IMG/VR virus record: IMGVR_UViG_3300044580_000304
Location: 1-63,240 of that record
DNA: 63,240 nt
Strand: one strand, 5' to 3'
Source: a virus
Lineage: Duplodnaviria > Caudoviricetes
Each line of letters opens with the position of its first letter. Position 1 is the stretch's first letter. Both the position numbers and the translations under genes were made by a program. The notes under the pieces were generated by a model, which saw only the letters and a list, made by a program, of their open reading frames with translations, searched no databases and had not been told where the DNA came from. Positions 1-61,823 of this stretch are shown here, in pieces.

Positions 1-55
1 CCTTTCCCGCCAAACCATACTATTGGAGATCGCATACAAGCTCCTGTAATAACTC
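1..55. repeat. 55-bp terminal direct repeat (copy 1), indicating circular assembly
   Basis: 1-55 is identical to 63186-63240; 55 is a typical assembler k-mer overlap. Confidence 0.95.
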
Positions 56-59
56 TTTT

Positions 60-539
60 CTATTCGTTTTTATTATCATAATATCCACTATACTCTTTCA
101 CTCGTTTAATGTACCAGTTACTTCCACCATACCTCCTTACTCCATTAACACCTTGCCTATGAGCGGCAATGGCAAGATCTGAGCTTCCAAGCCTTTTTAG
201 GTTGTCTACGTATAAATATCCCGCAATTATAGCCGACTCTAAAGGATCAAAGGGATCGTATTCACCGTACTTTTTAGCACGTTCGGCATGATAGCTCTCA
301 TTCAATTGCATCCTTCCCTTACTTATTCCATCATCACCAATAGCGGTATCATCTTCTCCCGATTCTGTAATAGCTATTCCACGCAGGATATGAGATGGAG
401 CACCAGTAATTTCCTCCGCGATTTCATAAATTGTTTTATCCTTCTTTGGCAACGCGACTTTTTCATCTTGTGGTCTTGACGATGACAGCATCAAAACAGA
501 GAAGAGACAGCACGAAATGATAATAGTGATCACTTTCAT
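60..539 (-). CDS. Lytic transglycosylase (SLT-like) with N-terminal membrane anchor/signal
   Basis: Motifs IAITESG, GRMQL, AGYL and AIAAHRQG match the SLT layout; hydrophobic N-terminus. Confidence 0.75.
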   Translation of the reverse strand: MKVITIIISCCLFSVLMLSSSRPQDEKVALPKKDKTIYEIAEEITGAPSHILRGIAITESGEDDTAIGDDGISKGRMQLNESYHAERAKKYGEYDPFDPLESAIIAGYLYVDNLKRLGSSDLAIAAHRQGVNGVRRYGGSNWYIKRVKEYSGYYDNKNE

Positions 540-540
540 C

Positions 541-603
541 TGGGGCTAGGTGGAATTGGACCACCGCAGGAAAGGAGGTAGGACCTGCCCACATGGTAGC
601 CCC
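541..603 (-). ncRNA. tRNA-like RNA (acceptor stem plus T-arm, no D-arm) with an anti-SD loop
   Basis: GGGGCTA/TAGCCCC-A acceptor stem; GGTGG-TCCAATT-CCACC T-arm; GCAGG-TCCTACCTCCTTT-CCTGC stem-loop. Confidence 0.55.
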
Positions 604-670
604 AAGCGCTGCATCGCGCTTATTTAACCAGCGGCACTAAAGATGTGCGGTAGCCGCCAACCGCAATATG

Positions 671-851
671 CGCTTCGTAACTCTTGGTTTTCTTATTTAC
701 CATGGCTCGCTCAAGCATGTTGGTTTTCTCCCCTATGTTGACTCGCTCTCACATTATGGTTTTCTCATTTTTTTTGGCTCGCTCGCGTACACTGGTTTTC
801 TCGCCGAAGGTGGCTCGCTCTTTCCAAGTGGTTTTCTCACTAAACATGGCT
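671..851 (-). ncRNA. TIGR-like dual-repeat array, 5 x 36 nt
   Basis: Plus-strand TGGTTTTCT at 685, 721, 757, 793, 829 and TGGCT(CGCT)-type repeat at 703, 739, 775, 811, 847; exact 36-nt period with unique spacers; minus-strand unit AGCCA-N9-AGAAAACCA-N9-AGCG. Confidence 0.75.
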
Positions 852-894
852 TACACCTTTACCATTTCCACACGTATTTAATGTAGAGCCTTTT

Positions 895-1122
895 TCATGG
901 CTTCGCTCCTTTCGCGCAGAGCAAGGTATCATGTTTTTCGTGCGCGTCTTGCTCGATGCATCCTTTACCGTAGAGTGACTGCAAAGCCTTCTGCGCTTGA
1001 TGCATTGTGATTCCAAACACAAAGGCGACATCGGTCGAGCTAGGCATATGTCCCATTCTCTTTTTTTGCCTTATGCAGAAATTCAGCACGTCTTTTTCAT
1101 CCTCGGTCAGTTTTACCGCCAT
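895..1122 (-). CDS. LexA-N-like winged-helix DNA-binding protein
   Basis: LTEDEKDVLNFC...GHMPSSTDVAFVFGIT...LQSLYGKGCIE; start placed at ATG 1122 behind GAGGAG. Confidence 0.6.
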   Translation of the reverse strand: MAVKLTEDEKDVLNFCIRQKKRMGHMPSSTDVAFVFGITMHQAQKALQSLYGKGCIEQDAHEKHDTLLCAKGAKP

Positions 1123-1279
1123 GATTCTCCTCTCTTTCTTTTTGCCTTTCTCTTTGCCATTGACGCTCCTCCCATAAGTTTTCTTCATCGATTTCTCGCT
1201 GGTTTATTATCTCCTCGTCCTCCGCATCGTCGAAAAACCCTGGAGGAAAAGGCCTATCAGGCAAATCTCCGCCGATCAT
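1097..1279 (-). CDS. Small acidic hypothetical protein
   Basis: ORF with AAGGAGG RBS. Confidence 0.55.
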   Translation of the reverse strand: MIGGDLPDRPFPPGFFDDAEDEEIINQREIDEENLWEERQWQRERQKEREENHGGKTDRG

Positions 1280-1290
1280 CCCGAACCTCC

Positions 1291-1470
1291 TTACTTGATC
1301 TTCAATCCAGCCTTTATGGCTTCCAACCTACACGCCCTACATATTTTCGATCTGTCAGGCTCATCATCTGTTTCTTCATCATCGAGACGCCATGTTTTCC
1401 CACAGTACGCACGTGCAGGATGCGTTGATCGCAGAATGTGCCATATATCGCCTTCTTTCATGTAAGTCAT
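1291..1470 (-). CDS. Small Cys/His protein (59 aa, below the ORF-track cut-off)
   Basis: Hand translation MTYMKEGDIWHILRSTHPARAYCG...ICRACRLEAIKAGLKIK. Confidence 0.5.
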   Translation of the reverse strand: MTYMKEGDIWHILRSTHPARAYCGKTWRLDDEETDDEPDRSKICRACRLEAIKAGLKIK

Positions 1471-1689
1471 TCTCTGCTTCCTATTTTTCTCTCTAAGACT
1501 TTTAGTTTTTCAAAGTTTGCACTGCAAACTGGGCATTTTCTGCTTTGCTCCTGCTTCATTTTATTTCGTCCTCTCTTTTAACGCTCTCATCGTTTTGCTC
1601 ATGTGCAATGTTTAATAGCGCTGCAAGCGCAAAACCAAAAATAAACCCAATAAATCCAACAGCTGCATACAACATTGCCCGCTCCTTTG

Positions 1690-2427
1690 CTATTTCCTGC
1701 TTAATTTATTGCCTGCCTTTCTCCAGTCTTCGCCAGTGAATTTAATTAGCACACCATTCTCTGTAAGGCGCGACATAATGTCTTCAGAGATATAGTTCTC
1801 AAGGCAGCTGTCGCATCCATTTACTGGACAATCCTTACGTAAATGCTTATTGCTAATAATGATGGTCGGTAGCATTCTTGCATGACGCTTGTCGATTATG
1901 TATGATAGCCAGTTTGTCTCGGCATCGCTGCCCTTAGTACGACCAAGCTCATCGATCGCAAGTAGTGGCAGTCTTGCAAGCTCATCGACGACGTTAAGCT
2001 CATCCTCGTGCGCCCGCTGTGTGTAGGTCGCGCGAATCCTTGTCGCTATCTCGTACATCGAATAGATACGGCCCCCTAACAGTTTGACAGCCGCAACAGC
2101 AAGGTGCGTTTTCCCAGTGCCGTTTTTCCCGATCATAATAATCTGCTGGATTTCTCTTGATATAAGCTTGCGCACAAGTTCAACGGCTCTTTTTAGTTCT
2201 GGTGTATTGGCTACAAAGTTCTCCAGCGTCGCGTTATAAAACATCGGCTCAATGTTCATTGCAGCATATTTTGCCAGTTCGCCTTCTTTTCGCCTCTCCT
2301 CATCTTTTTGTTTCTCTTCGCTGTCTATTTCTTCTAGGCACTGTGGGCATTGTCGCATAATTGAGAGAGAACCAATTTTAAGCTCGTTATCATAAACAAC
2401 CCCATGCTTTTCACATCTTACCTGCAT
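1690..2427 (-). CDS. DnaC/IstB-like AAA+ helicase loader
   Basis: N-terminal CxxH...CxxC; Walker A GKNGTGKT; Walker B LLAIDELG; PTIIISN. Confidence 0.9.
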   Translation of the reverse strand: MQVRCEKHGVVYDNELKIGSLSIMRQCPQCLEEIDSEEKQKDEERRKEGELAKYAAMNIEPMFYNATLENFVANTPELKRAVELVRKLISREIQQIIMIGKNGTGKTHLAVAAVKLLGGRIYSMYEIATRIRATYTQRAHEDELNVVDELARLPLLAIDELGRTKGSDAETNWLSYIIDKRHARMLPTIIISNKHLRKDCPVNGCDSCLENYISEDIMSRLTENGVLIKFTGEDWRKAGNKLSRK

Positions 2428-2428
2428 G

Positions 2429-3391
2429 CTAGCCCTCCTGTATGTCCAAAAATTCAGTGCGAGAAAAAACTTTTGGAGGCGCTACTCCAGAATGTACGGA
2501 GATAGTCTTACGGTTCATCTGCGCGATAAGTGTCGGGAATTTTTCACGCAGTTTTTTGCCTGATATTATATTCGATGCCCAGAAACTGTCATTCTTCGCC
2601 CAGCGAATAACATGCTCTATTTCCTGCCAGTCTCTCCCATCGATCCTATGTAGCCTCTCAATGTCCTTTGCCCATGTTTCAATCCTCGCATCAGAGACGT
2701 TGAATTTTTGGTCGACTATTCCCTTGTGCAGACTGTAGAGTAAATTTGCGAGCATAAACTCTTGGGAGTTATGATCTATTTTTATGACAGCAGATTTTTT
2801 TTCATCCCCTTCTTCCATTCCCAATCCCTCTTCTTCTGTCTCTGTCTCTCTTTCTTTTTCTTGGTCATTTGTATCTTCACTAGAGAGATTTGGTAAAGAT
2901 TCAACTAAAGACTCCTTTTGCGTGGATGGCGCTGTTGTAGCGCCACTATTATTTAAATCAGAATCAGAATCAGAATCAGAATCAGAATAGTTCGACTCAT
3001 ATGCATAACCATCGATATGATATCTATATCCTATGGATACCATATAGGAGATGATATTTTTAGGTAATTCTTTAAGGATAGCGTCAATTCCATCTTTAAT
3101 TTTCGATCTTGTATCGGCCTTTTGGTGTTGTGGCCATGCTGGAAGAATTATGTATCCATTATAATAATAAGCCTTCTTATCTTTTTGGAATTTTTCTAAT
3201 ATCTCACTAACACGAGCTTCATCGAGGCCCACATCAAATACAATTCTTCGGATAGTTATTTTGTAAACCCCTGCAATATTGGTAAGGGTGTTTGTTAATA
3301 AATATAAATACATTAGCTTTTCATCGGGATTTAGTGTTTGTACCCACTCATCATCCCAAAAGCCAGTTGATATATACCTATTGGTCGCCAT
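2429..3391 (-). CDS. Phage replication initiator / replisome organiser
   Basis: N-terminal FWDDEWV...KLMYLYLLTN domain; C-terminal FWASNIISGKKLREKF (lambda O-like); lies upstream of the DnaC-like gene. Confidence 0.8.
   Translation of the reverse strand: MATNRYISTGFWDDEWVQTLNPDEKLMYLYLLTNTLTNIAGVYKITIRRIVFDVGLDEARVSEILEKFQKDKKAYYYNGYIILPAWPQHQKADTRSKIKDGIDAILKELPKNIISYMVSIGYRYHIDGYAYESNYSDSDSDSDSDLNNSGATTAPSTQKESLVESLPNLSSEDTNDQEKERETETEEEGLGMEEGDEKKSAVIKIDHNSQEFMLANLLYSLHKGIVDQKFNVSDARIETWAKDIERLHRIDGRDWQEIEHVIRWAKNDSFWASNIISGKKLREKFPTLIAQMNRKTISVHSGVAPPKVFSRTEFLDIQEG
2958..2987. repeat. (TCAGAA)5 tandem repeat inside the initiator gene (SDSDSD), possible origin region
   Basis: Direct reading of the sequence. 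Confidence 0.6.
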
Positions 3392-3392
3392 T

Positions 3393-4199
3393 TTATTTAG
3401 CCTTTTGTATAATTAAGAAATCTGCTACCAGTTTTTTTGCCCGTTCTACTCTGCCCTGAAGATGTGGATATTTCTGCAAGAACTCTTCCCAGCCTTTTTG
3501 ATGCTGTTCTCGATGCTCCTCGGGAGTTAGCGCAAGCCAATTGAAAGGCTTGTCGATGGCGAGTGGAGCGGCGCCTCTCGAGACAATATGTGCCTTTTCT
3601 AGTCGCCCTCCGATTCCTGACGCATCAGATACCTTGTGGTTCGCCCACCACTCGGCTTCTGACACTTCATCATCGTCTTCTCGGAAATCTAATGGATCTC
3701 TATCGAGTGTTCCTCGCCACTCATGCCATTGGTAAAACAGTTTACGGACGTCTGCTTGCTGATCTATAGTGAGATCGCAGTAATCAACGATGATATCGAA
3801 GCATGCTTGGATAAGCTTCGCTGCATGTACAACATCGCTCTCGGATATGTGTATAGGCCTTAATTTGTGTGCAAACCTAGTCGGCACCCTATCCGCGTAT
3901 TCCTCGAGGATATCCAGATAGAGATCATACTTTTCAGCCTGTGTCGGCTTTCGCCCGTTCATCGATTCAAAAATGATTGTGATCAGGGCCCAGAGCGTGT
4001 CGTTCTGTTTGTATGTTCTCTCGCGCTCGGGTAGGTGGATCGTGACTATCGGATAGACGTTGGAGCCAGTCTTTTCGCGTCTTTTTGCTATCGCCTCAAA
4101 GACTTTCACAAAGGCTTGCTCGTCCTCGTGGTTGGGACGTATCCACGCTACATGCTTTTCTTCGATCCAAACTGTCTTGCAGGGCCCTGTTACTTTCAC
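3393..4199 (-). CDS. NinB/Orf-like protein with C-terminal HNH-like nuclease
   Basis: RTYKQNDTLWAL (NinB-like); HIVSRGA...NWLALTPEEHREQH. Confidence 0.55.
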   Translation of the reverse strand: MKVTGPCKTVWIEEKHVAWIRPNHEDEQAFVKVFEAIAKRREKTGSNVYPIVTIHLPERERTYKQNDTLWALITIIFESMNGRKPTQAEKYDLYLDILEEYADRVPTRFAHKLRPIHISESDVVHAAKLIQACFDIIVDYCDLTIDQQADVRKLFYQWHEWRGTLDRDPLDFREDDDEVSEAEWWANHKVSDASGIGGRLEKAHIVSRGAAPLAIDKPFNWLALTPEEHREQHQKGWEEFLQKYPHLQGRVERAKKLVADFLIIQKAK

Positions 4200-4207
4200 G
4201 GTTTGCC

Positions 4208-5182
4208 TCAGAAAATATCAAGATCCTCTGGCACATCTGATGCTGTAGGCTCTGGTTCAATTCGAGCTGCCTCAACTTTCACTGTCGCTTGCGGTATTGG
4301 TTGAGACGGAGCCTTTATAGTAGTAGGCTGCGTTATTTGTTGCGGTTGAGATACCTTACCATAATCAATAGCGACCTCTTCACTATGATGAGCATCTTCG
4401 CTAATTCCGAGTGTATATTCCTCATTGCCGACGTCTATTTCCTCGCGCTCTGCTCTGGATACTGCTTCGAGAGCTTCGATGCTGATCGGGCAAAGCTTGA
4501 GTGTTTTGATAACGACTGTCTTCAGAGCCATCTCGTCGAAATTTTTGTCCCAGATTGACTCTTCTCCTGGCTTCGTTTTTTGATGCGCTTTGCTATAGCG
4601 ATCACGATGCTTCTCTGCTTCAGCCTTAGTCATTACCTCAAACTGCACACCGCCATTTTGCAATTCAACGATACAGTAGTATGCGATTGGCTCTCCACGA
4701 TCTTTCCTAATGTCAACCTTGTGCGTGATATGCCTATTCATCCCGAGCTCGACCTCGACATAATCGTTTGAATAAACGATTTCCGCACAGATTGTCTTAA
4801 TAGTCTGTGATCTCCGAGCCAGAACGATAAGTCCTTTATAGCCGAGCTGGAAATGACAGGTCATTACCTTCGTCGGCTGACCATTGATTAAGCGTGTCTC
4901 GTTGTAAGGGATGAGCCACGCCTGCCCGAGTAGCGATCCTACCTCGAGGCCATAGCGCGCAGCCTGCCCGAGTGCCATGACGATCGATCCGCGATCACAC
5001 GCCATAAGAGTAGGGTTATTACTGATCTCCATGGCAGCAGCGGCAATAAACCGCTCAACGTTGATTGTCCCTTTCGGCAACGCAGCCTCAAATGAGGCCT
5101 TGTTGCGCACAAGGAACTGCTTCAATGTCTCTTTTGGCGCTTGCATGGTTACGGCGCCTGCGTCCTGTCCATTTGATTTCAT
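4208..5182 (-). CDS. recT: RecT single-strand annealing protein
   Basis: GQAWLIPY, FQLGYKGLIVLARRS, W...FDEMALKTV. Confidence 0.92.
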   Translation of the reverse strand: MKSNGQDAGAVTMQAPKETLKQFLVRNKASFEAALPKGTINVERFIAAAAMEISNNPTLMACDRGSIVMALGQAARYGLEVGSLLGQAWLIPYNETRLINGQPTKVMTCHFQLGYKGLIVLARRSQTIKTICAEIVYSNDYVEVELGMNRHITHKVDIRKDRGEPIAYYCIVELQNGGVQFEVMTKAEAEKHRDRYSKAHQKTKPGEESIWDKNFDEMALKTVVIKTLKLCPISIEALEAVSRAEREEIDVGNEEYTLGISEDAHHSEEVAIDYGKVSQPQQITQPTTIKAPSQPIPQATVKVEAARIEPEPTASDVPEDLDIF

Positions 5183-5754
5183 ACTGTCCTCCTTTGGGCA
5201 AATTTCTCACGGATTATTTCCGCGATTTTATAAGTCATCTCGATATCGCACGCAGCGTCGTGATTGTTGACTGGCTCAATGCCATACATGCGTGCGAGCG
5301 TCTCGAGCTTCCGATTCTCTGGCTTCTCTGCTACTCCCAGCCATTCGAGCAACCTATGGTTGCGGTAAATGTCGAGCGGTACGCGTTCAAACCATGAGTA
5401 GAAATACTTGTCCCCACAATCAAGCCATAGCTGCTCTAGGAAGGACAAATCAAAATCAACGTTGTAGCCAGCAGGGATAAACTTATCCTGTCTGTCATAC
5501 TTGTCGACGAATTGCCCTAAAAACTTTTCTATCTCATTTTTAGCGACTATGGCTGATGGATAGGCAGCGAGCTGCTCGGGAGAAATCCCGTTTGTCTCCA
5601 TTGCCTGCGGGTCAATCTCTCTGCCAACTGGATTGATGCGATAATCCGCCCGAGTCACCTGTCCATCTATCTCGATAAGAAAGGCCACTTGGATAAGGCC
5701 GTTTTTTATGGGATCAAGCCCCGTAGCCTCTGTGTCAATCCATGCGAGCTTCAT
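5179..5754 (-). CDS. DEDD 3'-5' exonuclease (DnaQ-like)
   Basis: WIDTEATG, GYNVDFD, HDAACD; start placed at ATG 5754 (ATGA coupling). Confidence 0.88.
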   Translation of the reverse strand: MKLAWIDTEATGLDPIKNGLIQVAFLIEIDGQVTRADYRINPVGREIDPQAMETNGISPEQLAAYPSAIVAKNEIEKFLGQFVDKYDRQDKFIPAGYNVDFDLSFLEQLWLDCGDKYFYSWFERVPLDIYRNHRLLEWLGVAEKPENRKLETLARMYGIEPVNNHDAACDIEMTYKIAEIIREKFAQRRTV

Positions 5755-6998
5755 AGGGGCTCCTTCGCATGGACAACCTGGCCCTCTTCTAGCCAAATAA
5801 TCCCATCATCCGCTTTGTCATAACGATCGTCGACAATTTCTATAATGACCTGGACGTCGTGCTGTTCGGCGAATGCCTTTATCGCGGCCAGCGATGCGCT
5901 GTCAAATGACTCACCGCGTTTTATGTAGATAGTTTTAAGCTCGCCCGAATACGCGACCGCAAGCATGAGCGCTATCTTGAGGCTCTCAGAGGTCGACCAG
6001 TTCTCGCAGGACGAGCCCTTGTACTCAAGGCCAGTCTCGGTAATCTTGAGTCCTCTTATCGGTACGCGAGCGTTGTTCATCATTTCGCTTTTTTCCTGTC
6101 GCAGTCGCTCAACCTCAGCTTGCGCAGCCTCATATTCTTTCTCTTTTTGTTGCCTCAGTTTGAGCTGCTCTTGGTAGGCCTGATATCTCCTTGCTTTTTC
6201 GTTTTCTGCTTCTGCATTTGCAATTTTTCGATCTATCTCGTCGAAGCTCATAAGCGGTTGAGGCTTCGGAGGGATCTTAGCTTTCGCTTTGTCGATTACC
6301 ACTTTCCCTTGAGCGAGTGCAGACTCCATCTCATCGATAGATATCGCACCATTAAACTGCCCGCATACCTCTTGGATCAGAGAATCAAAAAAGGAGCTAT
6401 ATACCTGTTCTGCCTTCTTTTGTGCTTCATTGAAAGTCTGAATCTTTTGTCTTTCCGCGAGTAGTTCTGATATCGATACAGGCTCTGCAAATGGCACTTC
6501 TTGGGGAACACCTATCGCCTTAAGCTCGCGTCCTTTAATGAGCCTCTCTTGCTCTGCGGACGCGATCGCTGCATCGATACCGGTAAAATCAAGGCCCGAC
6601 ATGTTGACAATCATTGAGCGCTTTTCAGCAGGCGGAAGGGTCATGAAATACTCTGGATCGAGAAATTGACCAGAGATGGCGTCCAGGAATTCTTGTGGAC
6701 GTGCTATCTTTCCGCCATCCTTCTCGATGGCGAGCGCGGTCCTTCCATCGCTCTTGATCACTCGTCGAACGATGTAATCGTTGATGCGGCCTATAATGAC
6801 AGCTTCGGGAGAATCATGGTTGACTACGTTCTCAGGAATGTCTCTACTGCCTTTAAGCAAATATTTTATTGCATCAATGACTGTTGACTTCCCTGCGCCA
6901 TTCTGACCTCGTATCTGCACAAGGTTTTGGCCGTCAAAATCAAGCTCGGCGGCCATGATCTTTCGTAGGCCTTCTATGGACAGCCCTATGAGCTTCAT
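5751..6998 (-). CDS. SMC/RecN-like ATPase with coiled coil
   Basis: Walker A GQNGAGKS, long coiled coil, degenerate signature WSTSE. Confidence 0.8.
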   Translation of the reverse strand: MKLIGLSIEGLRKIMAAELDFDGQNLVQIRGQNGAGKSTVIDAIKYLLKGSRDIPENVVNHDSPEAVIIGRINDYIVRRVIKSDGRTALAIEKDGGKIARPQEFLDAISGQFLDPEYFMTLPPAEKRSMIVNMSGLDFTGIDAAIASAEQERLIKGRELKAIGVPQEVPFAEPVSISELLAERQKIQTFNEAQKKAEQVYSSFFDSLIQEVCGQFNGAISIDEMESALAQGKVVIDKAKAKIPPKPQPLMSFDEIDRKIANAEAENEKARRYQAYQEQLKLRQQKEKEYEAAQAEVERLRQEKSEMMNNARVPIRGLKITETGLEYKGSSCENWSTSESLKIALMLAVAYSGELKTIYIKRGESFDSASLAAIKAFAEQHDVQVIIEIVDDRYDKADDGIIWLEEGQVVHAKEPL

Positions 6999-9135: not shown

Positions 9136-9191
9136 GATTGTATAATAAGGCAATATTGCCACATTGTCAATACATAAATTGCAATTTTGCC
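9117..9191. promoter_or_regulatory. Lysis/lysogeny switch: three operators plus leftward promoter
   Basis: GCAAT(T/A)TTGCC at 9117, 9150, 9181; minus-strand TTGACA(9170-9165)-17-TATTAT(9147-9142). Confidence 0.8.
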
Positions 9192-9216
9192 ACTTTTTAT
9201 TTCCGATAATCTATAT

Positions 9217-10071
9217 ATGAATGATTTTTGGAAGCGTGTTAAAGAGAAAATTAAAGAATCAAATACTACAATGGAGTGGATTGCAAACCAGATTGGAGTA
9301 AGAGCTGATTCTTTTAGAAGATGGTCACAAAGAGAGACTATTCCAGATGCAGAAAAAGCCTACAATATAGCCAAATCGCTAAATACATCTGTCGAATATC
9401 TTATTACTGGAGAGGAGCCACGCTATATATCGAAAGAAGATTATTCATTTCTAATTAGGGCTAAGAAATGGAAAAACATAATAGATGATTTAGAGATGCT
9501 AAGTCCACAAATCTCTAATAGTTTCTATGAAAGTATTCATCTATTAGCAAAAGAAGCTTATGGATTTTCTAATGCCAAAAAAATTTTCAAGAATCCCAAC
9601 GAGCTTGCGATCGAGATCCGCAATCAGCGTGGAGAGTCAGAGGAGATTGATTATTTCGATGTTGTGCCTGTCCCCGTCTTTTCCCAAAAAATTGCAGCAG
9701 GCAATGGGCAACAGGCACTCGCAGACAGCTCAATTATCGGTAAAATTCCTTTCCTTAAACGTATGCTCCGAGGTATCCATCCCTCTCGCGCAAGAGCAGT
9801 AGAGGTGCGCGGAGACTCGATGACAGGCATCCAGCTTTTTGATGGAGATATTGTCGTCTTTATACCAGGCGAGATACACGGAGATGGAATCTATGTCATT
9901 AGAATTATGGACGATCTCTATGTGAAACGTGTCGAGTTTGATCCTATCAACAGAAAGATAAGAATTATGTCTGAGAACCCTCGGTATCCCGACCGCATCG
10001 AATCGGCTGACGGTCAGACCGTAGAGGTAGTAGGCAAAGTGTACGGTTGGATACATGCGCATCCATATTGA
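9217..10071 (+). CDS. CI-like repressor (HTH plus S24 peptidase)
   Basis: N-terminal HTH; VRGDSM (catalytic Ser) and YVKR (Lys); likely ATG 9217. Confidence 0.92.
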   Translation: MNDFWKRVKEKIKESNTTMEWIANQIGVRADSFRRWSQRETIPDAEKAYNIAKSLNTSVEYLITGEEPRYISKEDYSFLIRAKKWKNIIDDLEMLSPQISNSFYESIHLLAKEAYGFSNAKKIFKNPNELAIEIRNQRGESEEIDYFDVVPVPVFSQKIAAGNGQQALADSSIIGKIPFLKRMLRGIHPSRARAVEVRGDSMTGIQLFDGDIVVFIPGEIHGDGIYVIRIMDDLYVKRVEFDPINRKIRIMSENPRYPDRIESADGQTVEVVGKVYGWIHAHPY

Positions 10072-10901: not shown

Positions 10902-11598
10902 TCGGAATATTTTCTAATACATCATGTCTATCGAAAAGCTTATAGACAAAATAGGTTGGGTAATACTTCATCGTTATCGGATCATAGCAAGGATCGAGGT
11001 CGACATAGTGTATGCCATTCGCGCTCCTATTTATTCTTGTCCTAAGCTCTATGGCTTCTTTCCCTGGCATTTTTATGTATAGGGGATTCTGTATCAATAT
11101 CTTATGTGACCCGGTATATCCACCGGCATATTTACCCTGAATTTGAAGCATCATATTTCCACGCTGAAATTCCACTATGTAAAGATAGTAGCGATTTGCC
11201 ATGGCAGCAGAGAGATTCGTATCCCACTCAGCGCTCTTTGCAAAGATCCATTGATTGAGATAGTTCATATATCTTTCGACCGCTCCAAGAGAGAGAATAT
11301 CACCATAACAGATAGCGCTGGTATCTGCTCCCTCGATATCGAAGATTACCATGGAAATTATTCTATCTCCCGATATTTCGATTGAAAGATAGGTTGGAAA
11401 TCTTACAGGCTCATTGGCAATGATATTGGCAAAAATGTTTGCATCTACAATATGCTTAATACTAGAGGGTAGGTAATTGTCGAACTCAATATAAGTAGAA
11501 TCATAAGGTTGAGCATTTGAATTTTCTTTCTCATTTGTTGACGCGCAACTAGCCAATAAAATTGGCAGTATAAAAACGGCAAGAACAAACCTTTTCAT
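10894..11598 (-). CDS. Lipoprotein
   Basis: MKRFVLAVFILPILLAS-C lipobox. Confidence 0.8.
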   Translation of the reverse strand: MKRFVLAVFILPILLASCASTNEKENSNAQPYDSTYIEFDNYLPSSIKHIVDANIFANIIANEPVRFPTYLSIEISGDRIISMVIFDIEGADTSAICYGDILSLGAVERYMNYLNQWIFAKSAEWDTNLSAAMANRYYLYIVEFQRGNMMLQIQGKYAGGYTGSHKILIQNPLYIKMPGKEAIELRTRINRSANGIHYVDLDPCYDPITMKYYPTYFVYKLFDRHDVLENIPIE

Positions 11599-12821
11599 TT
11601 TTCTGCGTCCTTTTTGATTATTGGCTCGAATACTCTGTCGATAGTATCAACAAGACCTTTCATGTCGGTGACAGAGAAGTGAGTATAGCCTCTCTGAACC
11701 TTCGTCAATTTATTGCTATCCTCGCTCCATCCAAGATATTCTCTTATAATAATAGGACTTGCTCCTTGCATAAGCAAGAGCGTGTTAAGGGTGTGCCGTA
11801 AACTGTGCGGGGTTCGCTTATGGCCATCTGAATCATAAAGGGGAAGCTTTGACTTTTTCATGGCGCTATCGAAGTTCTTTTTCCACCATTGAGCGCTATG
11901 GCGCCTGCCAGTTTCTGGGTCACAGAAGATCAGGTCATCATCGTCGAGCATTGTGTTTCTGGTAGCCTTGTGCTCGCTGATAATGCACCAAGCCGACCTA
12001 CTTATAGGGACCGTTCTTGGCTTGTTCCCCTTTGGCTCTCCCTTTTCTGCGATATCTTTCCAGTTATTGACGATAGCCAGTTCCTGTTCGCTTACGCATC
12101 CCCAAGGGAGGGCAAGAACTTCGCCACATCTCATTCCGGTAACGGCCACCAGGCGAAAACAATTCCACGCCTCTGTGTTATTCCAATTCTCCTGTCGTAA
12201 AAGAATTCTAAGCTCATCTATCGAAAAAGCGCCTCTTGGATTGTCATAATTCGAGCCAAGTCTCACAATCCCGACGCATGGGTTATAGGGGATATCCCGA
12301 TTTATTACAGCTTCCCCAAAAACTGTTTTCACTGCATTCATGATTTTGTCGATAGTCCCCGACGAAAGCGGGCGAATGGGAACGGGTGGAATTTCATTCC
12401 TATTCTTGTCCTTCTTCGGTTGCGACATGACCATTTTCTTTTGCAACCTGGCACGGAATGCCGTAATGTCGCGTGTCTTTATTTCATATATAGTCATGTC
12501 TGCTATGGGATCCGCGAGGACATGGTTTTTAATATATGACCTTATTATCCTGGCTGATTTTTTTGAAATGCTCTTTTGACCAATTCTCTGAATATGTGGA
12601 CAGCGTTCATAATCATAGAATGGTTCAATATACTGTCGAAGAGTATTTCGCCCTTCTTTTGCCAGCTCTTCCTTTCGAAGTGCTTCCTTTAAGGCAGCCT
12701 TAGCGGCTGCTTCGTTTCTGGTCCCTGTTGATACATAATTCTTCATCCCAGGCAATCGATAGCGGAAAATTCCAGATCCTGGCCTTCGTTTCAGTGAGTA
12801 TGGTAATTGATTGCGTCCCAT
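11595..12821 (-). CDS. int: Tyrosine integrase
   Basis: TGMRCGE, K, HSLRH, LGWS...Y catalytic set. Confidence 0.95.
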   Translation of the reverse strand: MGRNQLPYSLKRRPGSGIFRYRLPGMKNYVSTGTRNEAAAKAALKEALRKEELAKEGRNTLRQYIEPFYDYERCPHIQRIGQKSISKKSARIIRSYIKNHVLADPIADMTIYEIKTRDITAFRARLQKKMVMSQPKKDKNRNEIPPVPIRPLSSGTIDKIMNAVKTVFGEAVINRDIPYNPCVGIVRLGSNYDNPRGAFSIDELRILLRQENWNNTEAWNCFRLVAVTGMRCGEVLALPWGCVSEQELAIVNNWKDIAEKGEPKGNKPRTVPISRSAWCIISEHKATRNTMLDDDDLIFCDPETGRRHSAQWWKKNFDSAMKKSKLPLYDSDGHKRTPHSLRHTLNTLLLMQGASPIIIREYLGWSEDSNKLTKVQRGYTHFSVTDMKGLVDTIDRVFEPIIKKDAEK

Positions 12822-16240: not shown

Positions 16241-17004
16241 GTAAATTCCCCCTTGTCAGAGATCCACCACTCGAGAAATCCATACGAGATTGTTTTGCTC
16301 ATACGGGTTCCACCGTATCGCGTCCATCCCTGTAGTGCAGGCGTTACAAATGCAATGAAATTATCTTCTATGACTGAAAAAAATGTATGAAGATGCGAGC
16401 GAAAAAATACGTTCGCTTTTGGTTGCAGTTCATGTTCTGACCATAACAGATTCCACACTGCCTCGCGGGGAAGTGCAGGCGGTATCGATCTAGGCACTGA
16501 TGAACTGCCAAGATGATGCTTAAAGTCAATCACACATCCGGCATGTTCGAGCCATGCATGTTCTTGGAGGCGAGTTCCAAGCTCTTTTGCGATAGGTGCT
16601 TCGAATTGCTCCGCATCGCCTGTATGATAATTTGTGCCCTCTATAACTGTAGCCCGATCGAAATCAAATTGATGGATGCAATAAAGCGCCATTTCAGCTT
16701 GTTTTATTCGATCTGTTTCGCATAGCTCCGTCCCGCCACTTCGTATTCCATTTCCCTCAACCGCATCGCCATTGATAACAATACGGTCAAGATGGCCGAG
16801 CGATTGCGCGGTCGCTTGATACCAGTCCCATGTCTTCATTTGCCATAATCGAATCTTTTCTCGGAGGGGATCATCGCTTTCTTGCTCCCACATATATGGC
16901 GGGCAGAGGCCAAATTTATGTCCGCAATGTAAATCAGATATTGTTACACCATGCTTCGCCATAATTTCTCCTGGCATGTCTGAGGGGCATGTTCCTATAT
17001 TCAA
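16183..17004 (-). CDS. Calcineurin-like metallophosphoesterase
   Basis: SDLHCG, NGDAVEG, GTNYH, KHH, SHLH. Confidence 0.8.
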   Translation of the reverse strand: MNIGTCPSDMPGEIMAKHGVTISDLHCGHKFGLCPPYMWEQESDDPLREKIRLWQMKTWDWYQATAQSLGHLDRIVINGDAVEGNGIRSGGTELCETDRIKQAEMALYCIHQFDFDRATVIEGTNYHTGDAEQFEAPIAKELGTRLQEHAWLEHAGCVIDFKHHLGSSSVPRSIPPALPREAVWNLLWSEHELQPKANVFFRSHLHTFFSVIEDNFIAFVTPALQGWTRYGGTRMSKTISYGFLEWWISDKGEFTWKLHRLIPRFAAAKAEAL

Positions 17005-17660
17005 TAAACACCTAGTTCGTCCAACCCCCAGCCAAGCGCAAGCAATGCAATGATTACTTCGAGTACAATCTTATTACTTTTGAGTGCCTGCACCGATTTT
17101 TCGTAGCCCTTCAAGGATTCCAGTGCCTTCTTGTATGAGCTCTGTTGTGCCTGATAATCCTCCAAGAGCTGATTGTATTTTCCCTTCCAGCTGGCTAAAT
17201 CCGCTTCCAAGTTCGCTGATTTTTGCTCCAAGTCCGTTACTTGTTGACTCAAGGTTTGTAATTGTTCCTGCAATTTCTGATTGTCGGCTGTCAATGCTTC
17301 CAATTGTTGTTTTAATTGATTGTACATCTCTTGTAATGCTTTGTACTGTGCTTGCAAAGTCGCTATTTGATTTTTTAAGTCCTGATATTGTTGACTCAAT
17401 TCCCCGTACATCGCTCTCGATTGTGCTAAAGCGCTCTGCGAGTCCGCTAAGGCTTGCCCCGTATCTGCCAATTTTTTCCCCAAGGTCTGAAAAATCTCGA
17501 TCAAACGCTGCCTGTCGTTCTCGGATAATTGATAATTCTCGGTTAGTGGTGCAGGTAGTGATTCCTGCGAATACAACCGTAGCAATGACGGCCCCAGCGA
17601 AAAAATAACGAACAGAAATAGGAATTTTAGAGAGCCATAAGGAAATTTTTTCCGCCACAT
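17001..17660 (-). CDS. Coiled-coil protein with signal peptide and C-terminal TM (spanin-like subunit A)
   Basis: Q/L heptads; hydrophobic termini; lies after holin and endolysin. Confidence 0.65.
   Translation of the reverse strand: MWRKKFPYGSLKFLFLFVIFSLGPSLLRLYSQESLPAPLTENYQLSENDRQRLIEIFQTLGKKLADTGQALADSQSALAQSRAMYGELSQQYQDLKNQIATLQAQYKALQEMYNQLKQQLEALTADNQKLQEQLQTLSQQVTDLEQKSANLEADLASWKGKYNQLLEDYQAQQSSYKKALESLKGYEKSVQALKSNKIVLEVIIALLALGWGLDELGVY
17074..17658 (-). CDS. Overlapping-frame coiled-coil protein with N-terminal TM (spanin-like subunit B)
   Basis: Independent I/L/F heptads; GTG at 17658 shares the GGAGG RBS with ATG 17660. Confidence 0.55.
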   Translation of the reverse strand: MAEKISLWLSKIPISVRYFFAGAVIATVVFAGITTCTTNRELSIIRERQAAFDRDFSDLGEKIGRYGASLSGLAERFSTIESDVRGIESTISGLKKSNSDFASTVQSITRDVQSIKTTIGSIDSRQSEIAGTITNLESTSNGLGAKISELGSGFSQLEGKIQSALGGLSGTTELIQEGTGILEGLRKIGAGTQK

Positions 17661-17662
17661 TC

Positions 17663-17926
17663 TTACCCTCCATTTTCATCATCCCCCGCCTTTGGGATTT
17701 TCTTGGTTGCTATATCCCGATCTAATTCTGGTCGATAATGCGCTGATTTTTGCCATGCATCTCCCACTTGAGCAGCCTGGTAGCCGAATCCTGCAAACGC
17801 GAGCGCACCAATAATCGTTGGACCAACGACTGCAATCGCCGAAGGAAGGGTAAAAACAGTAAAAACATATACCGCCAAAAGCGCCCAGAATGTAGCCCAA
17901 AATGCTGTTGCTTTTCGCGTTTTCAT
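17663..17926 (-). CDS. Holin
   Basis: Two TM helices and a charged C-terminus; coupled to the endolysin. Confidence 0.7.
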   Translation of the reverse strand: MKTRKATAFWATFWALLAVYVFTVFTLPSAIAVVGPTIIGALAFAGFGYQAAQVGDAWQKSAHYRPELDRDIATKKIPKAGDDENGG

Positions 17927-18930: not shown

Positions 18931-19025
18931 GCAAAAGGGCTGGTTATCCCTGTTACGGAATAATCAGCCCTTGTCTCCACTTGGCGATCAATAGGAATTT
19001 TACCATAGCCACACCCCGCCGTCAA
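18931..19025 (-). promoter_or_regulatory. Lysis-operon promoter, 19-nt box and terminator hairpin
   Basis: TTGACG(19025-19020)-17-TAAAAT(19002-18997); box 18985-18967; long stem followed by U-tract. Confidence 0.7.
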
Positions 19026-20058
19026 CATTCGATGCTTGAAACACAATGGAGTTTAAGATTCCAATAGTTGTTGTGCGGCACCGGCAATGCTTCGTGTATC
19101 CTAAAAACGAGAGAATGCTTTGTTTTGCTTTTTCCAGTATTCTAGGATTTGATCGATATAGTTCGGCATACCTTTTCAGCCTCCTGCGGGTTCTTTGTAT
19201 GGTTGCCTTTTTAGGCTTGATGTGAGTGGGCCAAATACGATAGCCACAAAAATCAATACCTTGTTTCCAGAGGAATATTCTTGACTTTGGATTCAATTCC
19301 AAATCAAGATACGCATTGAGATATCCTTCTATCAAAATCCACAATCGTCTTAAATGCTGCTTTGATGGATGCAGAATGATCATATCATCCATATACCGTA
19401 CATAATACCTTGCACCACAAATATCTTTTATAAAATGATCCAGTGCATTCAGATAAATATTGGCCGATAATTGACTTGTGAGTGCCCCGATCGGCAAGCC
19501 GCGGCCATCGGTCTCAAAGCTATCGATAACGACCCTATAAAGTGCGTTGACCATTTTATCAGAAATAGCTCTCGCAAATTCCTTCTTGAGAATTGCGTGG
19601 TTAATGGAAGGGAAAAATCTATGTACATCCAATTTAAGTACGTAAAATTCTCCATAATTTCGATGCGCAATCCGCGCAAAATGTTGTATTCTTGCGACGG
19701 CTGCATGCGTGCCCAATCCTTTTCTGCATGCAAAAGAATCCGAAATGAATTTCTTTTCAAAGATAGGCTCTATCACCTGCACGAGTGCATGATGCACCAC
19801 CCTATCCCGAAAAGCAGGCGCTGATATAAGACGCCTTTTCGGATCACTCACCCAGAATTGTCTGTAAGGAAGAGGTGTATACATATTCCATATTAACTCG
19901 TTTTGGAGTTCGATAAGATTCTCTTCGAGGTTCTCTTTGAATCTCAGCGCTTCGATTCTATATCTTTTCCCTCGCTTGGCTTTTACGTAGGCATTGTAGA
20001 GATTCTCATAATCGACAACGGACGTAAAAAGGTTATTATATGCTTTCATCTTGTCCAT
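19000..20058 (-). CDS. DGR reverse transcriptase
   Basis: PKRRLI.AP.FRDRVVH, GLPIGALTSQ, YVRYMDD, IDFCGY; no intron maturase/endonuclease tail; TR and avd upstream. Confidence 0.97.
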   Translation of the reverse strand: MDKMKAYNNLFTSVVDYENLYNAYVKAKRGKRYRIEALRFKENLEENLIELQNELIWNMYTPLPYRQFWVSDPKRRLISAPAFRDRVVHHALVQVIEPIFEKKFISDSFACRKGLGTHAAVARIQHFARIAHRNYGEFYVLKLDVHRFFPSINHAILKKEFARAISDKMVNALYRVVIDSFETDGRGLPIGALTSQLSANIYLNALDHFIKDICGARYYVRYMDDMIILHPSKQHLRRLWILIEGYLNAYLDLELNPKSRIFLWKQGIDFCGYRIWPTHIKPKKATIQRTRRRLKRYAELYRSNPRILEKAKQSILSFLGYTKHCRCRTTTIGILNSIVFQASNVDGGVWLW

Positions 20059-20207
20059 TATAAAGTAGCGCGAACCACAGTCGGGGATCGCCCCTACCAG
20101 CCGCCCGCGCCTTTTAATGTTTTCCTATAAAAGGAAGGAACAGGACTCCTTTTTCTCTATGCTCTGCCCATGTGCCCGTAAGCGCATGGTTTCTGACATT
20201 GAGAGAG

Positions 20208-20322
20208 AGCAGGGCGAAACCCGATGTTGTTGTTCGAGTTGACGCGGCGATTATTCAGATTCAAGTACGCCAATCCAGCATTCGCGCCATTGTTCCAGTT
20301 GCCGCCCCGAAGGGGAACCCGC
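20208..20322 (-). repeat. DGR template repeat (TR), 115 bp
   Basis: Ungapped match to VR 20760-20874; rich in AAC/AAT codons. Confidence 0.95.
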
Positions 20323-20342
20323 CACATTTTTCAGCCCTGTCC

Positions 20343-20687
20343 CTAAACACCAGGCGAATGTAACCATCCACCCAGCATCTTTCCTATTTCCACCATCTGC
20401 CCTGAGAGGACCCCGTATTTTTTCATGTCCATAAATTTAAGAAGCATCCCCATTCGCACGAGAATCTTAAGCCGCGAAAGCTCCATATCAGCGGCCTCGA
20501 TCATGCGCCGACGCTCTTGCGTGGCGCGTATCATGTTCGCACGCGTGATATAGGTGCCAATGTTCCAGAGCGCATTCGTTGTATCCGCTACTAAAGTATG
20601 CCGCTCAGATTTGGGATACTGTTTCATTGCAATATATAAATAGAGTGCCATATCCTCCCACTTCTGAACAACCTTCATTGGCTCCAC
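20343..20687 (-). CDS. avd: DGR accessory variability determinant
   Basis: YPKSERHTL...EIGKMLGGW four-helix bundle lying between VR and TR. Confidence 0.93.
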   Translation of the reverse strand: MEPMKVVQKWEDMALYLYIAMKQYPKSERHTLVADTTNALWNIGTYITRANMIRATQERRRMIEAADMELSRLKILVRMGMLLKFMDMKKYGVLSGQMVEIGKMLGGWLHSPGV

Positions 20688-20747
20688 AGCTTTACTCCTT
20701 AAGTTTAGGCATGAAAACCATCAGAATCCAGATTCTCAGAAAACAGA

Positions 20748-21881
20748 TTACAACACAAAAGCAGGGCGAAACCCGATGCTGGTGGCCGAGATGACGCGGC
20801 GATTATCCAGATTCATGTACGCCAATCCAGCATTCGCGCCAGAGTTCCAGAGGCCGCCCCGAAGGGGAACCCGCTCTCCATAGTTGCGCACTGAAACATA
20901 ACCCTTTGCTTCATAGCCCTGCGTAGCGAATACCAAGGAGCCGTCCTTACTCACCTTCGGCGCGATCATGAGCGCAGCGAGCTTCTGCCTTAGTGCAAGC
21001 TCCATTGAGTCATAGGTCGCCACATACGTCATGCTTCTCCAACCATTCTCTCCGCTAATTGTGGCATAGTCAAAATCTCCCGTGTCGCCGCCACCAGCAG
21101 GAGTAGGTGTTTCAGTATATTTTGTAGGAGTAACATTCGATAATACTGGATCACCACTATCTGCGGCGCCGTTTCTGTCTCCAGGGCCTACGGTCGCATC
21201 AAAATAAGCCTCTCTGGCTGGCCACGACGATTCAGCTAGGTTGAAGTTGTTATCGTCGGGGAAATACATCCTTCCATCGATGATCTTAAAGCCATCGTTC
21301 CATTCGGAAATATTCCCGACCAGATCGGCAATCCCTGCATAGGTATTGTCGTGCCGCCACGAATTTGGGCCCGATCCCGTCAAGGTGCTTGGAGTACCAG
21401 TTGAATCCCCAGGAGTCCCACCATCCACACGCACACCAGTTTCATAGGTTAATGCATGCGAGCGGCCATAGTTTGTATTCCCTCTTGGCTGGAAGCCGTT
21501 CTTAAGGCACCACAGTGCAATTGCCGCCCATTCCCACGCGGTCATCATGTGCCATCCAGCGCCCTTGCTTGTGCAGGCCGATCTTGCAGCATCAAAAGTA
21601 ATGCCTGTCTTCGGGTCTTGTCCTGGTAGCGAGTATGCGCGGCCATCGATAACAACTGCCTGATAAGCTCCAATCCAGATCTCTGGTTTTGTTACACCAC
21701 CCACAATAAATGCGGGGTGCGGCCCAGTGCCGAGTTCTGCGCTGATATCTTCCAAATTGAACTTTGGAATCCTCACCATGTAACTGGGATTGCCCAGGTC
21801 ATCGTACATGATCTTCACTTTACCGCCTGATGCTGCAAAGATCGCAGCACTCATGGCATCCTTCGTAAAAGTTGCTGGCAT
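20748..21881 (-). CDS. DGR target protein, Mtd-like C-type-lectin/FGE-fold receptor-binding protein
   Basis: WHMMTAWEW, GIADLVGNISEW, RGGxW...IGFRPAF C-terminus containing the VR. Confidence 0.92.
   Translation of the reverse strand: MPATFTKDAMSAAIFAASGGKVKIMYDDLGNPSYMVRIPKFNLEDISAELGTGPHPAFIVGGVTKPEIWIGAYQAVVIDGRAYSLPGQDPKTGITFDAARSACTSKGAGWHMMTAWEWAAIALWCLKNGFQPRGNTNYGRSHALTYETGVRVDGGTPGDSTGTPSTLTGSGPNSWRHDNTYAGIADLVGNISEWNDGFKIIDGRMYFPDDNNFNLAESSWPAREAYFDATVGPGDRNGAADSGDPVLSNVTPTKYTETPTPAGGGDTGDFDYATISGENGWRSMTYVATYDSMELALRQKLAALMIAPKVSKDGSLVFATQGYEAKGYVSVRNYGERVPLRGGLWNSGANAGLAYMNLDNRRVISATSIGFRPAFVL
20760..20874 (-). repeat. DGR variable repeat (VR)
   Basis: 11 mismatches to TR, 10 of them at TR adenines. 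Confidence 0.95.
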
Positions 21882-43911: not shown

Positions 43912-44160
43912 TCACGTTTTCTCCACCTTTTGCTCTCTATGCGTTCCAGATAGTGTTCCCCTCCCGCGAAGCAACGCCATATATGCCGCCTGTGCCTTTT
44001 GGTCTCCTCGCGCCGCCAAAAGCCGCAGCTTTTCAATATTCGCCTGGTGTTCATCAAACATAGCATCAGCGGCCTGTGCTAACTTTTGCCTTGCTTCTTC
44101 AGCTTCGGCTTTTCTGTGTGCAATTCTTACCATAAGATTCAATAACTCTTTTTCACTCAT
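43912..44160 (-). CDS. Hypothetical protein
   Basis: ATGA-coupled to the helicase gene. Confidence 0.6.
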   Translation of the reverse strand: MSEKELLNLMVRIAHRKAEAEEARQKLAQAADAMFDEHQANIEKLRLLAARGDQKAQAAYMALLRGRGTLSGTHREQKVEKT

Positions 44161-61252: not shown

Positions 61253-61823
61253 GACTTGTACCTCCGCCTATGAGCTGGTTTCTCTGCTTGCGCTGTCGTC
61301 CTACTCCGACTTCTCGGAAGTCTACCTCGGGGTACTTCGCAAGAAAGAGCTTCTTTTTGAGCCTATATATCTCTGTCTTATATCCTTTTACATCCTCAAC
61401 GACAGTATGTCCTAGTTCAACATCAAAGTAGCTAAAATCTGCTTTATAGGATATTTTTTGAATCTTCCCGAACGTTTTGTGTATGAATACTTCCTGAATA
61501 ACAAAAGAAGGCTGGCACTGAAGTTCACGAATCTTCCCCGCCATTTCAAGCATTTTCAGCTCTTTATATCGATTCATCTCCGCCTTTGAGGCAAACGTTA
61601 TGCCGTCGCAGGTTCTCTCTTCTTTTTGCGATACCTTTATTCTATTCTTGCTTTTTTGTGTAGTCTCTGCGGCAACTATCGCTCGATTGAGGGCTTGGAA
61701 TTTTTGTCTTATTTCGGGATCTCTTAAGTCGGTATAAAGCATAAGGCTGTCTCGGGCGGTGTAAAGTTTCTTTAACGCCCACCCAAGGTATGGATTATCT
61801 TGCAGGTATTCAGCTCGGTACAT
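61239..61823 (-). CDS. DUF1064 family PD-(D/E)xK nuclease
   Basis: DGITFASK.E..RY, YKADF.Y, VEDVKG. Confidence 0.85.
   Translation of the reverse strand: MYRAEYLQDNPYLGWALKKLYTARDSLMLYTDLRDPEIRQKFQALNRAIVAAETTQKSKNRIKVSQKEERTCDGITFASKAEMNRYKELKMLEMAGKIRELQCQPSFVIQEVFIHKTFGKIQKISYKADFSYFDVELGHTVVEDVKGYKTEIYRLKKKLFLAKYPEVDFREVGVGRQRKQRNQLIGGGTSHGGS

Follow-up and report, generated by a model that had tools for sequence, protein, structure and literature searches.

A TIGR guide array without a detectable tas gene in a closed phage genome

IMG/VR record IMGVR_UViG_3300044580_000304 is the genome of a temperate myovirus, and the window considered here is the whole of that 63,240-bp stretch. At positions 671-851, read on the minus strand, it carries a genuine five-unit dual-repeat TIGR array, a guide array of the kind that serves Nop-domain Tas effectors, and profile searches show a closed genome in which no tas gene is detectable. 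TIGR arrays are already known; within the literature searched, the presence of one without tas in a closed phage genome is the new aspect. The cognate effector is probably the ~290-aa nuclease-less TasA family, whose genes immediately precede letter-identical repeats at most of the other loci. The chances are about even that the window holds a guide-only array reliant on TasA made elsewhere, either for use or as a sponge.

A five-unit dual-repeat array

According to the available parts of Faure et al. (2025; PMC12045711), TIGR arrays consist of two distinct alternating repeats of 8-12 nt, separated by spacers of ~9 nt and forming 36-nt units. Box C (CCA) closes both repeats at the 3' end, while a box D dinucleotide stands at the 5' end and covaries between the edge and the loop repeat; the loop repeat is A-rich between the two boxes. 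The first edge repeat of an array is truncated, and a terminator lies at the array end (PMC12045711). The corresponding features in the window are as follows (L and G numbers denote the loci and the whole records with which it was compared).

671-851, minus strand: TIGR dual-repeat array, five units, 181 nt, G-before-repeat subtype; from sequence reading and a pattern count, with repeats identical to those of Tas-linked arrays elsewhere
816-851, minus strand: tigRNA unit 1, its leading AGCCA part of the 5'-degenerate first edge repeat (847-855); from sequence reading
780-815, minus strand: tigRNA unit 2; from sequence reading
744-779, minus strand: tigRNA unit 3; its spacer A recurs unchanged in the tas-less L022 mini-array, and its spacer B is 1 nt off another L022 spacer
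708-743, minus strand: tigRNA unit 4, opening with AGTCA (TCA in place of CCA at box C); its spacer A also occurs, letter for letter, in the Tas-linked L078 array
671-707, minus strand: tigRNA unit 5, 37 nt through an extra base at 675, ending in the 3'-truncated last edge repeat
646-665, minus strand: terminator-like hairpin 5 nt past the array, with 6 pairs (4 G-C) and a T-rich tail; weak by itself

Each of the five units reads AG(C/T)CA, 9 nt, AGAAAACCA, 9 nt, AGCG, where AGAAAACCA is the loop repeat and the edge repeat is AGCGAGCCA. The loop repeat has the form AG-AAAA-CCA, A-rich between box D and box C, and all five copies are exact. Internal edge repeats are exact in three of four cases, the odd one out being AGCGAGTCA at 739-747; thus, 8 of the 9 full internal repeats are exact. 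Of the 10 repeats with a spacer after them, 9 have CCA as box C and one has TCA. Box D is AG at the start of both repeat types, not the UG of TasR arrays (PMC12045711); edge and loop still agree. The first edge repeat (847-855) is reduced to its 3' AGCCA and the last to AGCG (671-674), the latter standing 1 nt out of register with the extra base at 675. Nine of the ten spacers end in G, the exception being spacer A of unit 5.

The loop-N9-edge pattern, with R permitted at one position and up to 2 mismatches allowed, occurs four times in the window, every time with 0 mismatches, versus 0.01 occurrences expected; none of 100 dinucleotide-preserving shuffles reaches four. Tandem Repeats Finder recovers the array only in part (685-784, period 36, 2.8 copies, 70% matches). 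A scan for terminator-like hairpins found one site versus 1.5 expected in shuffles, which makes the hairpin weak evidence alone; its location fits the array-end terminator of Faure et al. (2025). Together, the window array displays the sequence features by which Faure et al. (2025) recognize TIGR: alternating repeats, 36-nt units, box C, an A-rich loop repeat, and truncated ends with a terminator-like hairpin. A first-pass annotation, made from the letters of the window, had read five 36-nt units on the minus strand here. The reading holds, with units running from 851 to 816, 815 to 780, 779 to 744, 743 to 708, and 707 to 671, the last of them 37 nt. All ten spacers that it listed are exactly right, as is its count of nine ending in G. 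It had not remarked on the extra base at 675 or on the shortened first edge repeat.

Absence of tas from the window

The first and last 55 bases of the window are identical, an exact 55-bp direct terminal repeat that closes the genome. It is on this repeat that completeness, also claimed by the first-pass annotation, rests, and the absence of tas is judged by sequence profiles rather than by fold. A profile hidden Markov model (HMM) of 41 Tas sequences, run against all six frames of the window, gave a best E of 0.0076 (bias 5), on a coiled-coil open reading frame (ORF) at 17001-17660, and an HMM of 190 Tas sequences gave a best E of 0.13. A six-frame search of the window with Tas alignment A1 returned nothing at E <= 10, and hhalign of the Tas alignment against 27 window ORFs reached a maximum probability of 6.8%. 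Six-frame searches of the window with PF01798 (Nop) and PF02371 (Transposase_20) found no match; neither Pfam, applied to 60 window ORFs, nor PHROGs, applied to 10, revealed a Nop or IS110 domain. On all of these profile searches, then, no tas is present beside the array or elsewhere in the genome, and the earlier statement that the genome has no Nop/IS110-like ORF is borne out by the Tas HMMs, hhalign, six-frame PF01798/PF02371, and Pfam alike.

Two candidates were considered and rejected. The HMM match at 17004-17675 is to a coiled-coil ORF, for which Pfam gives 128 coiled-coil families. At 61473-61751 (+), tblastn with the 41 Tas proteins gave an alignment to the Tas C-terminus with an E of 0.003, as a tas pseudogene might. 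It was judged to be chance: the alignment has 2 stops and 26% gaps and runs antisense to a DUF1064 gene. A read-through HMM scores 3.4 bits at this site and at most 9.7 bits, on the coiled-coil frame, while shuffled windows reach 4.9.

The same repeats beside TasA-like proteins

A scan of IMG/VR and of species-representative genomes for exact loop-N9-edge-N9-loop (three exact repeats) defines the set of loci compared here. The repeat pair of the window was found by this exact scan in 65 IMG/VR contigs and in 21 contigs of species-representative genomes. Adjoining the array, and on the strand that gives the repeats as AGAAAACCA and AGCGAGCCA, is an ORF of 235-365 aa that encodes a ~290-aa TasA-like Nop protein. 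It is present in 53 of the 65 viral loci (51 by clustering, 52 by profile HMM, and L003, whose Tas gene lies just outside the fetched flank, by whole-record search) and in 15 of the 21 genome loci. The TIGR dual-repeat architecture proposed in the first-pass annotation is thereby upheld, the repeats being letter-identical to those of arrays that adjoin TasA-like Nop proteins.

For one Tas-like member, a PDB search matched chain 9mty (E 5.7e-10) and chains named TasH (E 9.7e-6). Chain 9mty is 331 residues long, the length given for TaTasR (PMC12045711), and from this shared length the two would be the same protein. Among four Tas-like members, Pfam gave only sub-threshold Transposase_20 matches, in two, and these searches found no nuclease domain in the adjacent proteins. 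Their C-terminal tail has a conserved Tyr with Gly-His after it, which agrees with the Y/H processing loop that the available text of a preprint by Xu et al. (2026; 10.64898/2026.09.09.750476) describes for dual-repeat Tas. The adjacent proteins are called TasA-like because of the missing nuclease domain and this tail. Searched against 1.84 billion proteins, a profile built from 22 of them reaches 9,450 cluster representatives with a cutoff of E <= 0.001. Tas proteins served by identical repeats share only 27-65% identity, and for this reason use of one array by the Tas of another element, that is, cross-use, seems plausible.

The same two 9-nt repeats in the genome loci (L069-L089) occur on contigs of metagenome-assembled genomes (MAGs) labeled Halobacteriota, Thermoplasmatota, Woesearchaeota, several Patescibacteria groups, Chloroflexota, Spirochaetota, Verrucomicrobiae, Omnitrophota, Hydrogenedentota, and Gammaproteobacteria; across them the repeat sequence is much more conserved than the Tas protein. 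A separate observation concerns a protein of 172-266 aa in seven loci, beside tas or between sub-arrays, with a weak ddrB-ParB Pfam match (E 0.0045). It recalls the TasParB association in the available parts of Faure et al. (PMC12045711). Examples are:

L003, 12970-13487: ddrB-ParB-like protein
L004, 3420-4106: ddrB-ParB-like protein
L017, 4991-5701: ddrB-ParB-like protein
L027, 4487-5284: ddrB-ParB-like protein

Other arrays without tas

No Tas is seen at 12 of the 65 viral loci. In four, L016, L028, L056, and L060, the array touches the contig end, which makes them uninformative. The remaining records were searched whole, and two of them contain a single short array apiece and no Tas by A1, PF02371, or PF01798: G002, at 89 kb and 100% complete, and G006, at 80 kb, with terminal repeats and likewise 100% complete. 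The other six also yielded no Tas in the whole-record search, but are fragments, 22-69% complete. Together with the closed genome of the window, these two further complete genomes with an array and no recognizable tas show that guides and effector can be inherited apart.

A promoter-like site matching 10 of 12 positions lies ~20 nt upstream of the G002 array, and one matching 11 of 12 lies ~120 nt upstream of that in G006. The G002 array (locus L009, 2969-3245) sits between two 63-nt direct repeats, 87% identical, each with a TTAAAA-16-TATAAT promoter-like site, and looks as if it had been inserted, or duplicated, along with a copy of the promoter of the downstream gene. The neighbors of tas-less arrays are mutually unrelated; by Pfam they include a clamp loader, a gp32-like protein, a primase, and DUF3102, and the neighbor ORFs in L022 were read by eye, without a domain scan, as radical-SAM-like and glycosyltransferase-like. 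Arrays in loci with no Tas are short, with a median of 8 repeats versus 14 in Tas-linked loci; the window has 10.

A fixed G before each repeat

Counted over distinct spacers from the window and the first 65 viral loci, the base at position 9 is G in ~50% of cases and C in 3%. The base before each repeat was scored in 87 loci (L001-L065, L069-L089, and the window); it is often fixed per locus, as all G, all A, or nearly all T, and is mixed in others. In Tas-linked L004, G occupies position 9 in 42 of 42 spacers. With G in 9 of its 10 spacers, the window falls into the G subtype, in effect one of 10-nt repeats and 8-nt spacers. This subtype accounts for 12 of 19 loci without Tas versus 16 of 68 with Tas, counts that are not independent, some loci being near-copies. 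On the Tas tree it is scattered over two of the three major clades, L034 and L036 both belonging to one of the two, and is absent from the third (25 rows).

The first-pass annotation had regarded both the AG at box D and the G before the repeats as unusual. Neither is: AG opens both repeats in every locus found, including all the Tas-linked loci of this repeat family, and arrays such as that of L004 carry the fixed G beside a Tas gene. Its alternative split into 10-nt repeats and 8-nt spacers proves the better one, because the constant G in front of the repeats marks a subtype to which Tas-linked arrays also belong.

The locus and its relatives

The array lies at the 3' end of a minus-strand early/replication operon whose order is YqaJ, SMC-like ATPase, exonuclease, RecT, DnaD-like initiator, DnaC-like loader, small ORFs, a 97-aa winged helix-turn-helix (wHTH) protein, array, hairpin, and SLT. 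A weak promoter-like site precedes the wHTH gene. The two flanking genes are:

895-1188, minus strand: winged-helix protein, 97 aa, LexA_DNA_bind-like (Pfam E 1.4e-5; phrog_3502), directly upstream of the array
60-539, minus strand: SLT lytic transglycosylase, downstream of the array, 61% identical (blastp) to its counterpart behind tas-array in L034

On the 13-kb fragment L034, tas is followed by an array that begins 4 nt past the tas stop codon, then by a 65-aa ORF and SLT. The arrangement in L034, L095, and L105 is tas-array-SLT, and that in the window is wHTH-array-SLT. The wHTH gene occupies the position that tas has in L034, an observation of context rather than of a role as partner; no relative of the protein was found in IMG/VR or in the fetched loci.

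A single SLT query found no match in metagenomes, and an SLT alignment search found 16 metagenomic relatives, 43-62% identical. Three have an array upstream and two of those three also have tas, the third being cut by the contig end; the other 13 have neither array nor tas. The closest partial relative of the window is L068, the one IMG/VR contig that a search with SLT found (SLT 75%, the next ORF 73%, and another ORF 63% identical). Because the array is present in only 3 of the 16 SLT relatives and not in L068, the tas-array cassette is, by this comparison, an accessory insert at the module junction upstream of SLT, of which the window appears to keep the RNA half only. A blastn search of window positions 1-6000 against cultured phages gave no match.

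Spacers and targets

No window guide has a match at <=2 mismatches in the window or in 105 fetched loci, in a search that is underpowered. In the other direction, 534 guide pairs from other loci gave 3 matches to the window at 2 mismatches, versus 3-7 in shuffles. An arrangement test, too sparse to speak to target geometry, gave five one-mismatch matches for spacer A plus the reverse complement of spacer B versus 0-1 for the other arrangements, and all five represent one guide against one phage lineage.

A guide of L085, a Tas-linked array on a Dehalococcoidales MAG contig, matches L034 near position 5739 (-) at 17 of 18 positions when spacer A is joined to the reverse complement of spacer B. 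The site lies ~100 nt downstream of the TIGR array in L034-type phages and recurs in L094, L095, and L105; this is a single lineage, and the match could be chance.

Unrelated arrays have 9-nt spacers in common: 18 are shared among 62 array lineages versus ~8 +/- 3 in composition-matched nulls. Two window spacers, in units 3 and 4, recur letter for letter in unrelated loci, the first in tas-less L022 and the second in Tas-linked L078. Shared spacers, in which L022 (6330-6470), L078, and L049 are involved, sit in differing slots (A or B) and in differing order.

How the array may be used

Tas is required both to process the precursor into 36-nt tigRNAs and for DNA binding, as far as the available parts of Faure et al. 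(2025; PMC12045711) describe, and so the transcript of the window array would be inert on its own. TasA, in the available text of Xu et al. (2026; 10.64898/2026.09.09.750476), is an RNA-guided repressor. A guide-only array that depends on foreign TasA is the reading favored here, at about an even chance as said above, because of the recurrence of tas-less arrays in complete genomes, the promoter-like sites upstream, the intact canonical ends, and repeats common to Tas proteins only 27-65% identical. The array would have derived from a tas-array cassette and been kept as a guide-only locus, would be transcribed together with the early genes, and would be active only where a compatible TasA came in trans from a co-resident prophage, a co-infecting phage, or the host. 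The phage guides might then be loaded onto the foreign TasA and redirect an RNA-guided repressor, which seems somewhat doubtful, or the array transcript might titrate that TasA as an RNA sponge, which seems improbable.

A wider suggestion is tentative, a little short of an even chance: tas-less TIGR mini-arrays may be recurrent phage "guide-only" genes that reprogram or jam the TasA repressor of a prophage, a rival phage, or a host. Such a class would comprise short arrays, mostly of the G subtype and at least two of them behind promoter-like sites, that exploit the near-universal repeat sequence of the TasA family. It would amount to warfare at the RNA level among mobile elements, with viral mini-CRISPR arrays and RNA anti-CRISPRs as its counterparts outside TIGR.

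Several observations weigh against dependence on foreign TasA. The five window guides, tried in four arrangements against the window and 65 loci in an underpowered search, gave only 3-mismatch matches. A search of sequencing runs for the locus found no RNA run and one DNA run with 7% of the sampled words. The array has one mutated box C (739-747) and a last unit 1 nt out of register. That repeats are no more mismatched without Tas (3.7% per nt in tas-less arrays versus 5.2% in Tas-linked ones, with 1 in 72 nt in the window) speaks for the reading, but this comparison of decay is biased, as decayed arrays are invisible when loci are found via three exact repeats. CheckV puts completeness of the window at 75% despite the terminal repeat. 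The nearest partial relative, L068, has no array, and no close relative was found for a conservation test, the DnaC-like protein and the wHTH being unmatched in IMG/VR. No host or donor TasA was identified and no tRNAs were found in the window, whose terminase is at most 35% identical to any cultured-phage terminase.

The array may instead be an inert relic, a serious alternative although on balance not a probable one. The lineage would have had a tas-array cassette upstream of SLT, as L034 does, and would have lost tas by deletion or replacement, leaving units that drift without function. The arrangement of L034, L095, and L105 beside that of the window, with SLT proteins 61% identical between L034 and the window, agrees with such a history, as does the accessory distribution of the cassette (array in 3 of 16 metagenomic SLT relatives, tas in 2, none in L068). 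With Tas required for processing, an array without it has no obvious activity; moreover, the array is on the short side at 10 repeats, the Tas-linked median being 14, has its altered box C and 1-nt slip, and had no target in the underpowered search. On the other hand, 8 of the 9 full internal repeats have stayed exact, and nothing resembles a remnant of tas: the read-through HMM stays at or below 9.7 bits, reached on the coiled-coil frame, and gives 3.4 bits at the sole tblastn match, below the 4.9 of shuffles. Tas-less arrays in two other complete genomes, in unrelated contexts and each with a promoter-like site, are also better explained by arrays gained or kept more than once than by arrays that survived by chance each time.

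It is very unlikely that the window encodes a partner that was missed, whether a Tas beyond the reach of the profiles or some unrelated protein that binds RNA, for instance the upstream wHTH or an ORF of unknown function. Many window ORFs do lack a Pfam or PHROG match, the wHTH gene stands exactly where L034 has tas and behind a weak promoter-like site, and Tas branches without detectable arrays are noted in the available part of the preprint (10.64898/2026.09.09.750476), so that pairings need not be adjacent. However, the repeats are letter-identical to those of the TasA family, and the profile of that family, which reaches 9,450 clusters, scores nothing in the window; hhalign gives at most 6.8% probability for all 27 ORFs tested. 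An unrecognized partner protein beside the array, one of the fates offered by the first-pass annotation, is further disfavored by the unrelated housekeeping genes that neighbor other tas-less arrays and by a wHTH without relatives in IMG/VR or the fetched loci. A coding repeat is scarcely credible. It would have the plus-strand ORF at 668-886 (72 aa, GFL/GSL repeats) or that at 684-881 translated, with the 36-nt period as a 12-residue peptide repeat. Two plus-strand frames are indeed open across the array, and stops are depleted in the GFL/GSL frame (22 of 222 distinct units versus 38.1 +/- 5.8 with shuffled spacers). Yet the ORFs are antisense to all neighboring genes, no plus-strand promoter-like site was found in 1-1600, the same repeats form established guide arrays beside Tas, and variation is confined exactly to the spacers with no codon-like pattern beyond position 9. 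Roughly 10% of distinct units keep a stop in the GFL/GSL frame, and the guide-array claim thus survives the prospect, raised in the first-pass annotation, of a conserved translated GFL/GSL peptide. In the arrays of L001-L089, stop depletion is limited to the GFL/GSL antisense frame, the other two antisense frames being undepleted.

Other features of the genome

The virion genes of the myovirus include those for sheath, baseplate J, portal, terminase, and capsid. An apparent diversity-generating retroelement occupies 19000-21881 (-), and two giant ORFs lie among the virion genes, one of 1640 aa with a C-terminal SNF2/helicase module and one of 1500 aa with RadC-like JAB, DUF6582, and DUF5661; they resemble the polyvalent proteins of some phages.

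9187-10071, opposite strand: CI-like S24 repressor
11595-12821: integrase
19000-20058, minus strand: reverse transcriptase (RVT_1 E 2.7e-24)
20066-20209, minus strand: Rfam RT-14 RNA (66.7 bits)
20343-20687, minus strand: bAvd-like protein
20748-21881, minus strand: unannotated 377-aa ORF, possible variable target of the retroelement
44157-49079, minus strand: giant ORF, 1640 aa
50754-55256, minus strand: giant ORF, 1500 aa

Relation to known systems

The available parts of Faure et al. (PMC12045711) and Xu et al. (10.64898/2026.09.09.750476) describe the natural targets and functions of TIGR-Tas as undetermined. TIGRFinder, the only published array finder, annotates arrays solely around tas loci (according to the available text of 10.64898/2026.09.09.750476), and tas-less arrays therefore cannot enter its catalogue. 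The converse case, Tas branches without arrays, is mentioned in the discussion of the same preprint. No paper was found that pairs "TIGR arrays" with "orphan", although supplements (Faure et al. 2025, fig. S4 and Table S1) and TIGRSafari, which lay outside the search, may list such arrays; the word "orphan" is absent from Faure et al. (2025), the Xu et al. (2026) preprint, an asymmetric-targeting preprint, and a review (PMC12385481). If the guides are used in trans or as sponges, then conflict or cooperation between mobile elements would be suggested as a native function of TIGR-Tas. If the array is a relic, it would record the gain and loss of tas-array cassettes at a phage module junction.

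With the dual-repeat TIGR-TasA systems, as far as the available parts of PMC12045711 and 10.64898/2026.09.09.750476 describe them, the window array shares alternating edge and loop repeats ending in CCA, 36-nt units, 9-nt (8+1) spacers, and truncated ends. It differs in that its genome has no detectable tas and that its box D is AG, not the UG of TasR arrays. Racrs (PMC10651486) and phage crRNA-like regulatory RNAs (bioRxiv 10.1101/2024.10.29.618823), in the parts of these sources available, are likewise repeat mimics that engage an effector they do not encode, and they provide the decoy model. Racrs, however, are solitary repeat units (PMC10651486), whereas the window keeps five full units, ten different spacers, and canonical ends. 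This is more than a pure sponge would need.

Virus-borne mini-CRISPR arrays without cas are short viral guide arrays that take part in interviral conflict and are defined by spacer matches to rival viruses. The window array is similar in being a short viral guide array without an effector gene, one that could act only via the effector of another element, but it belongs to TIGR, with a Nop-domain effector, and none of its spacers was seen here to match a rival virus. Bacterial genomes contain orphan CRISPR arrays that persist after the loss of effector genes, or away from them; some are relics and some are used in trans. Unlike these, the window array resides in a 63-kb phage and not in a chromosome, and thus any donor in trans would be a different replicon.

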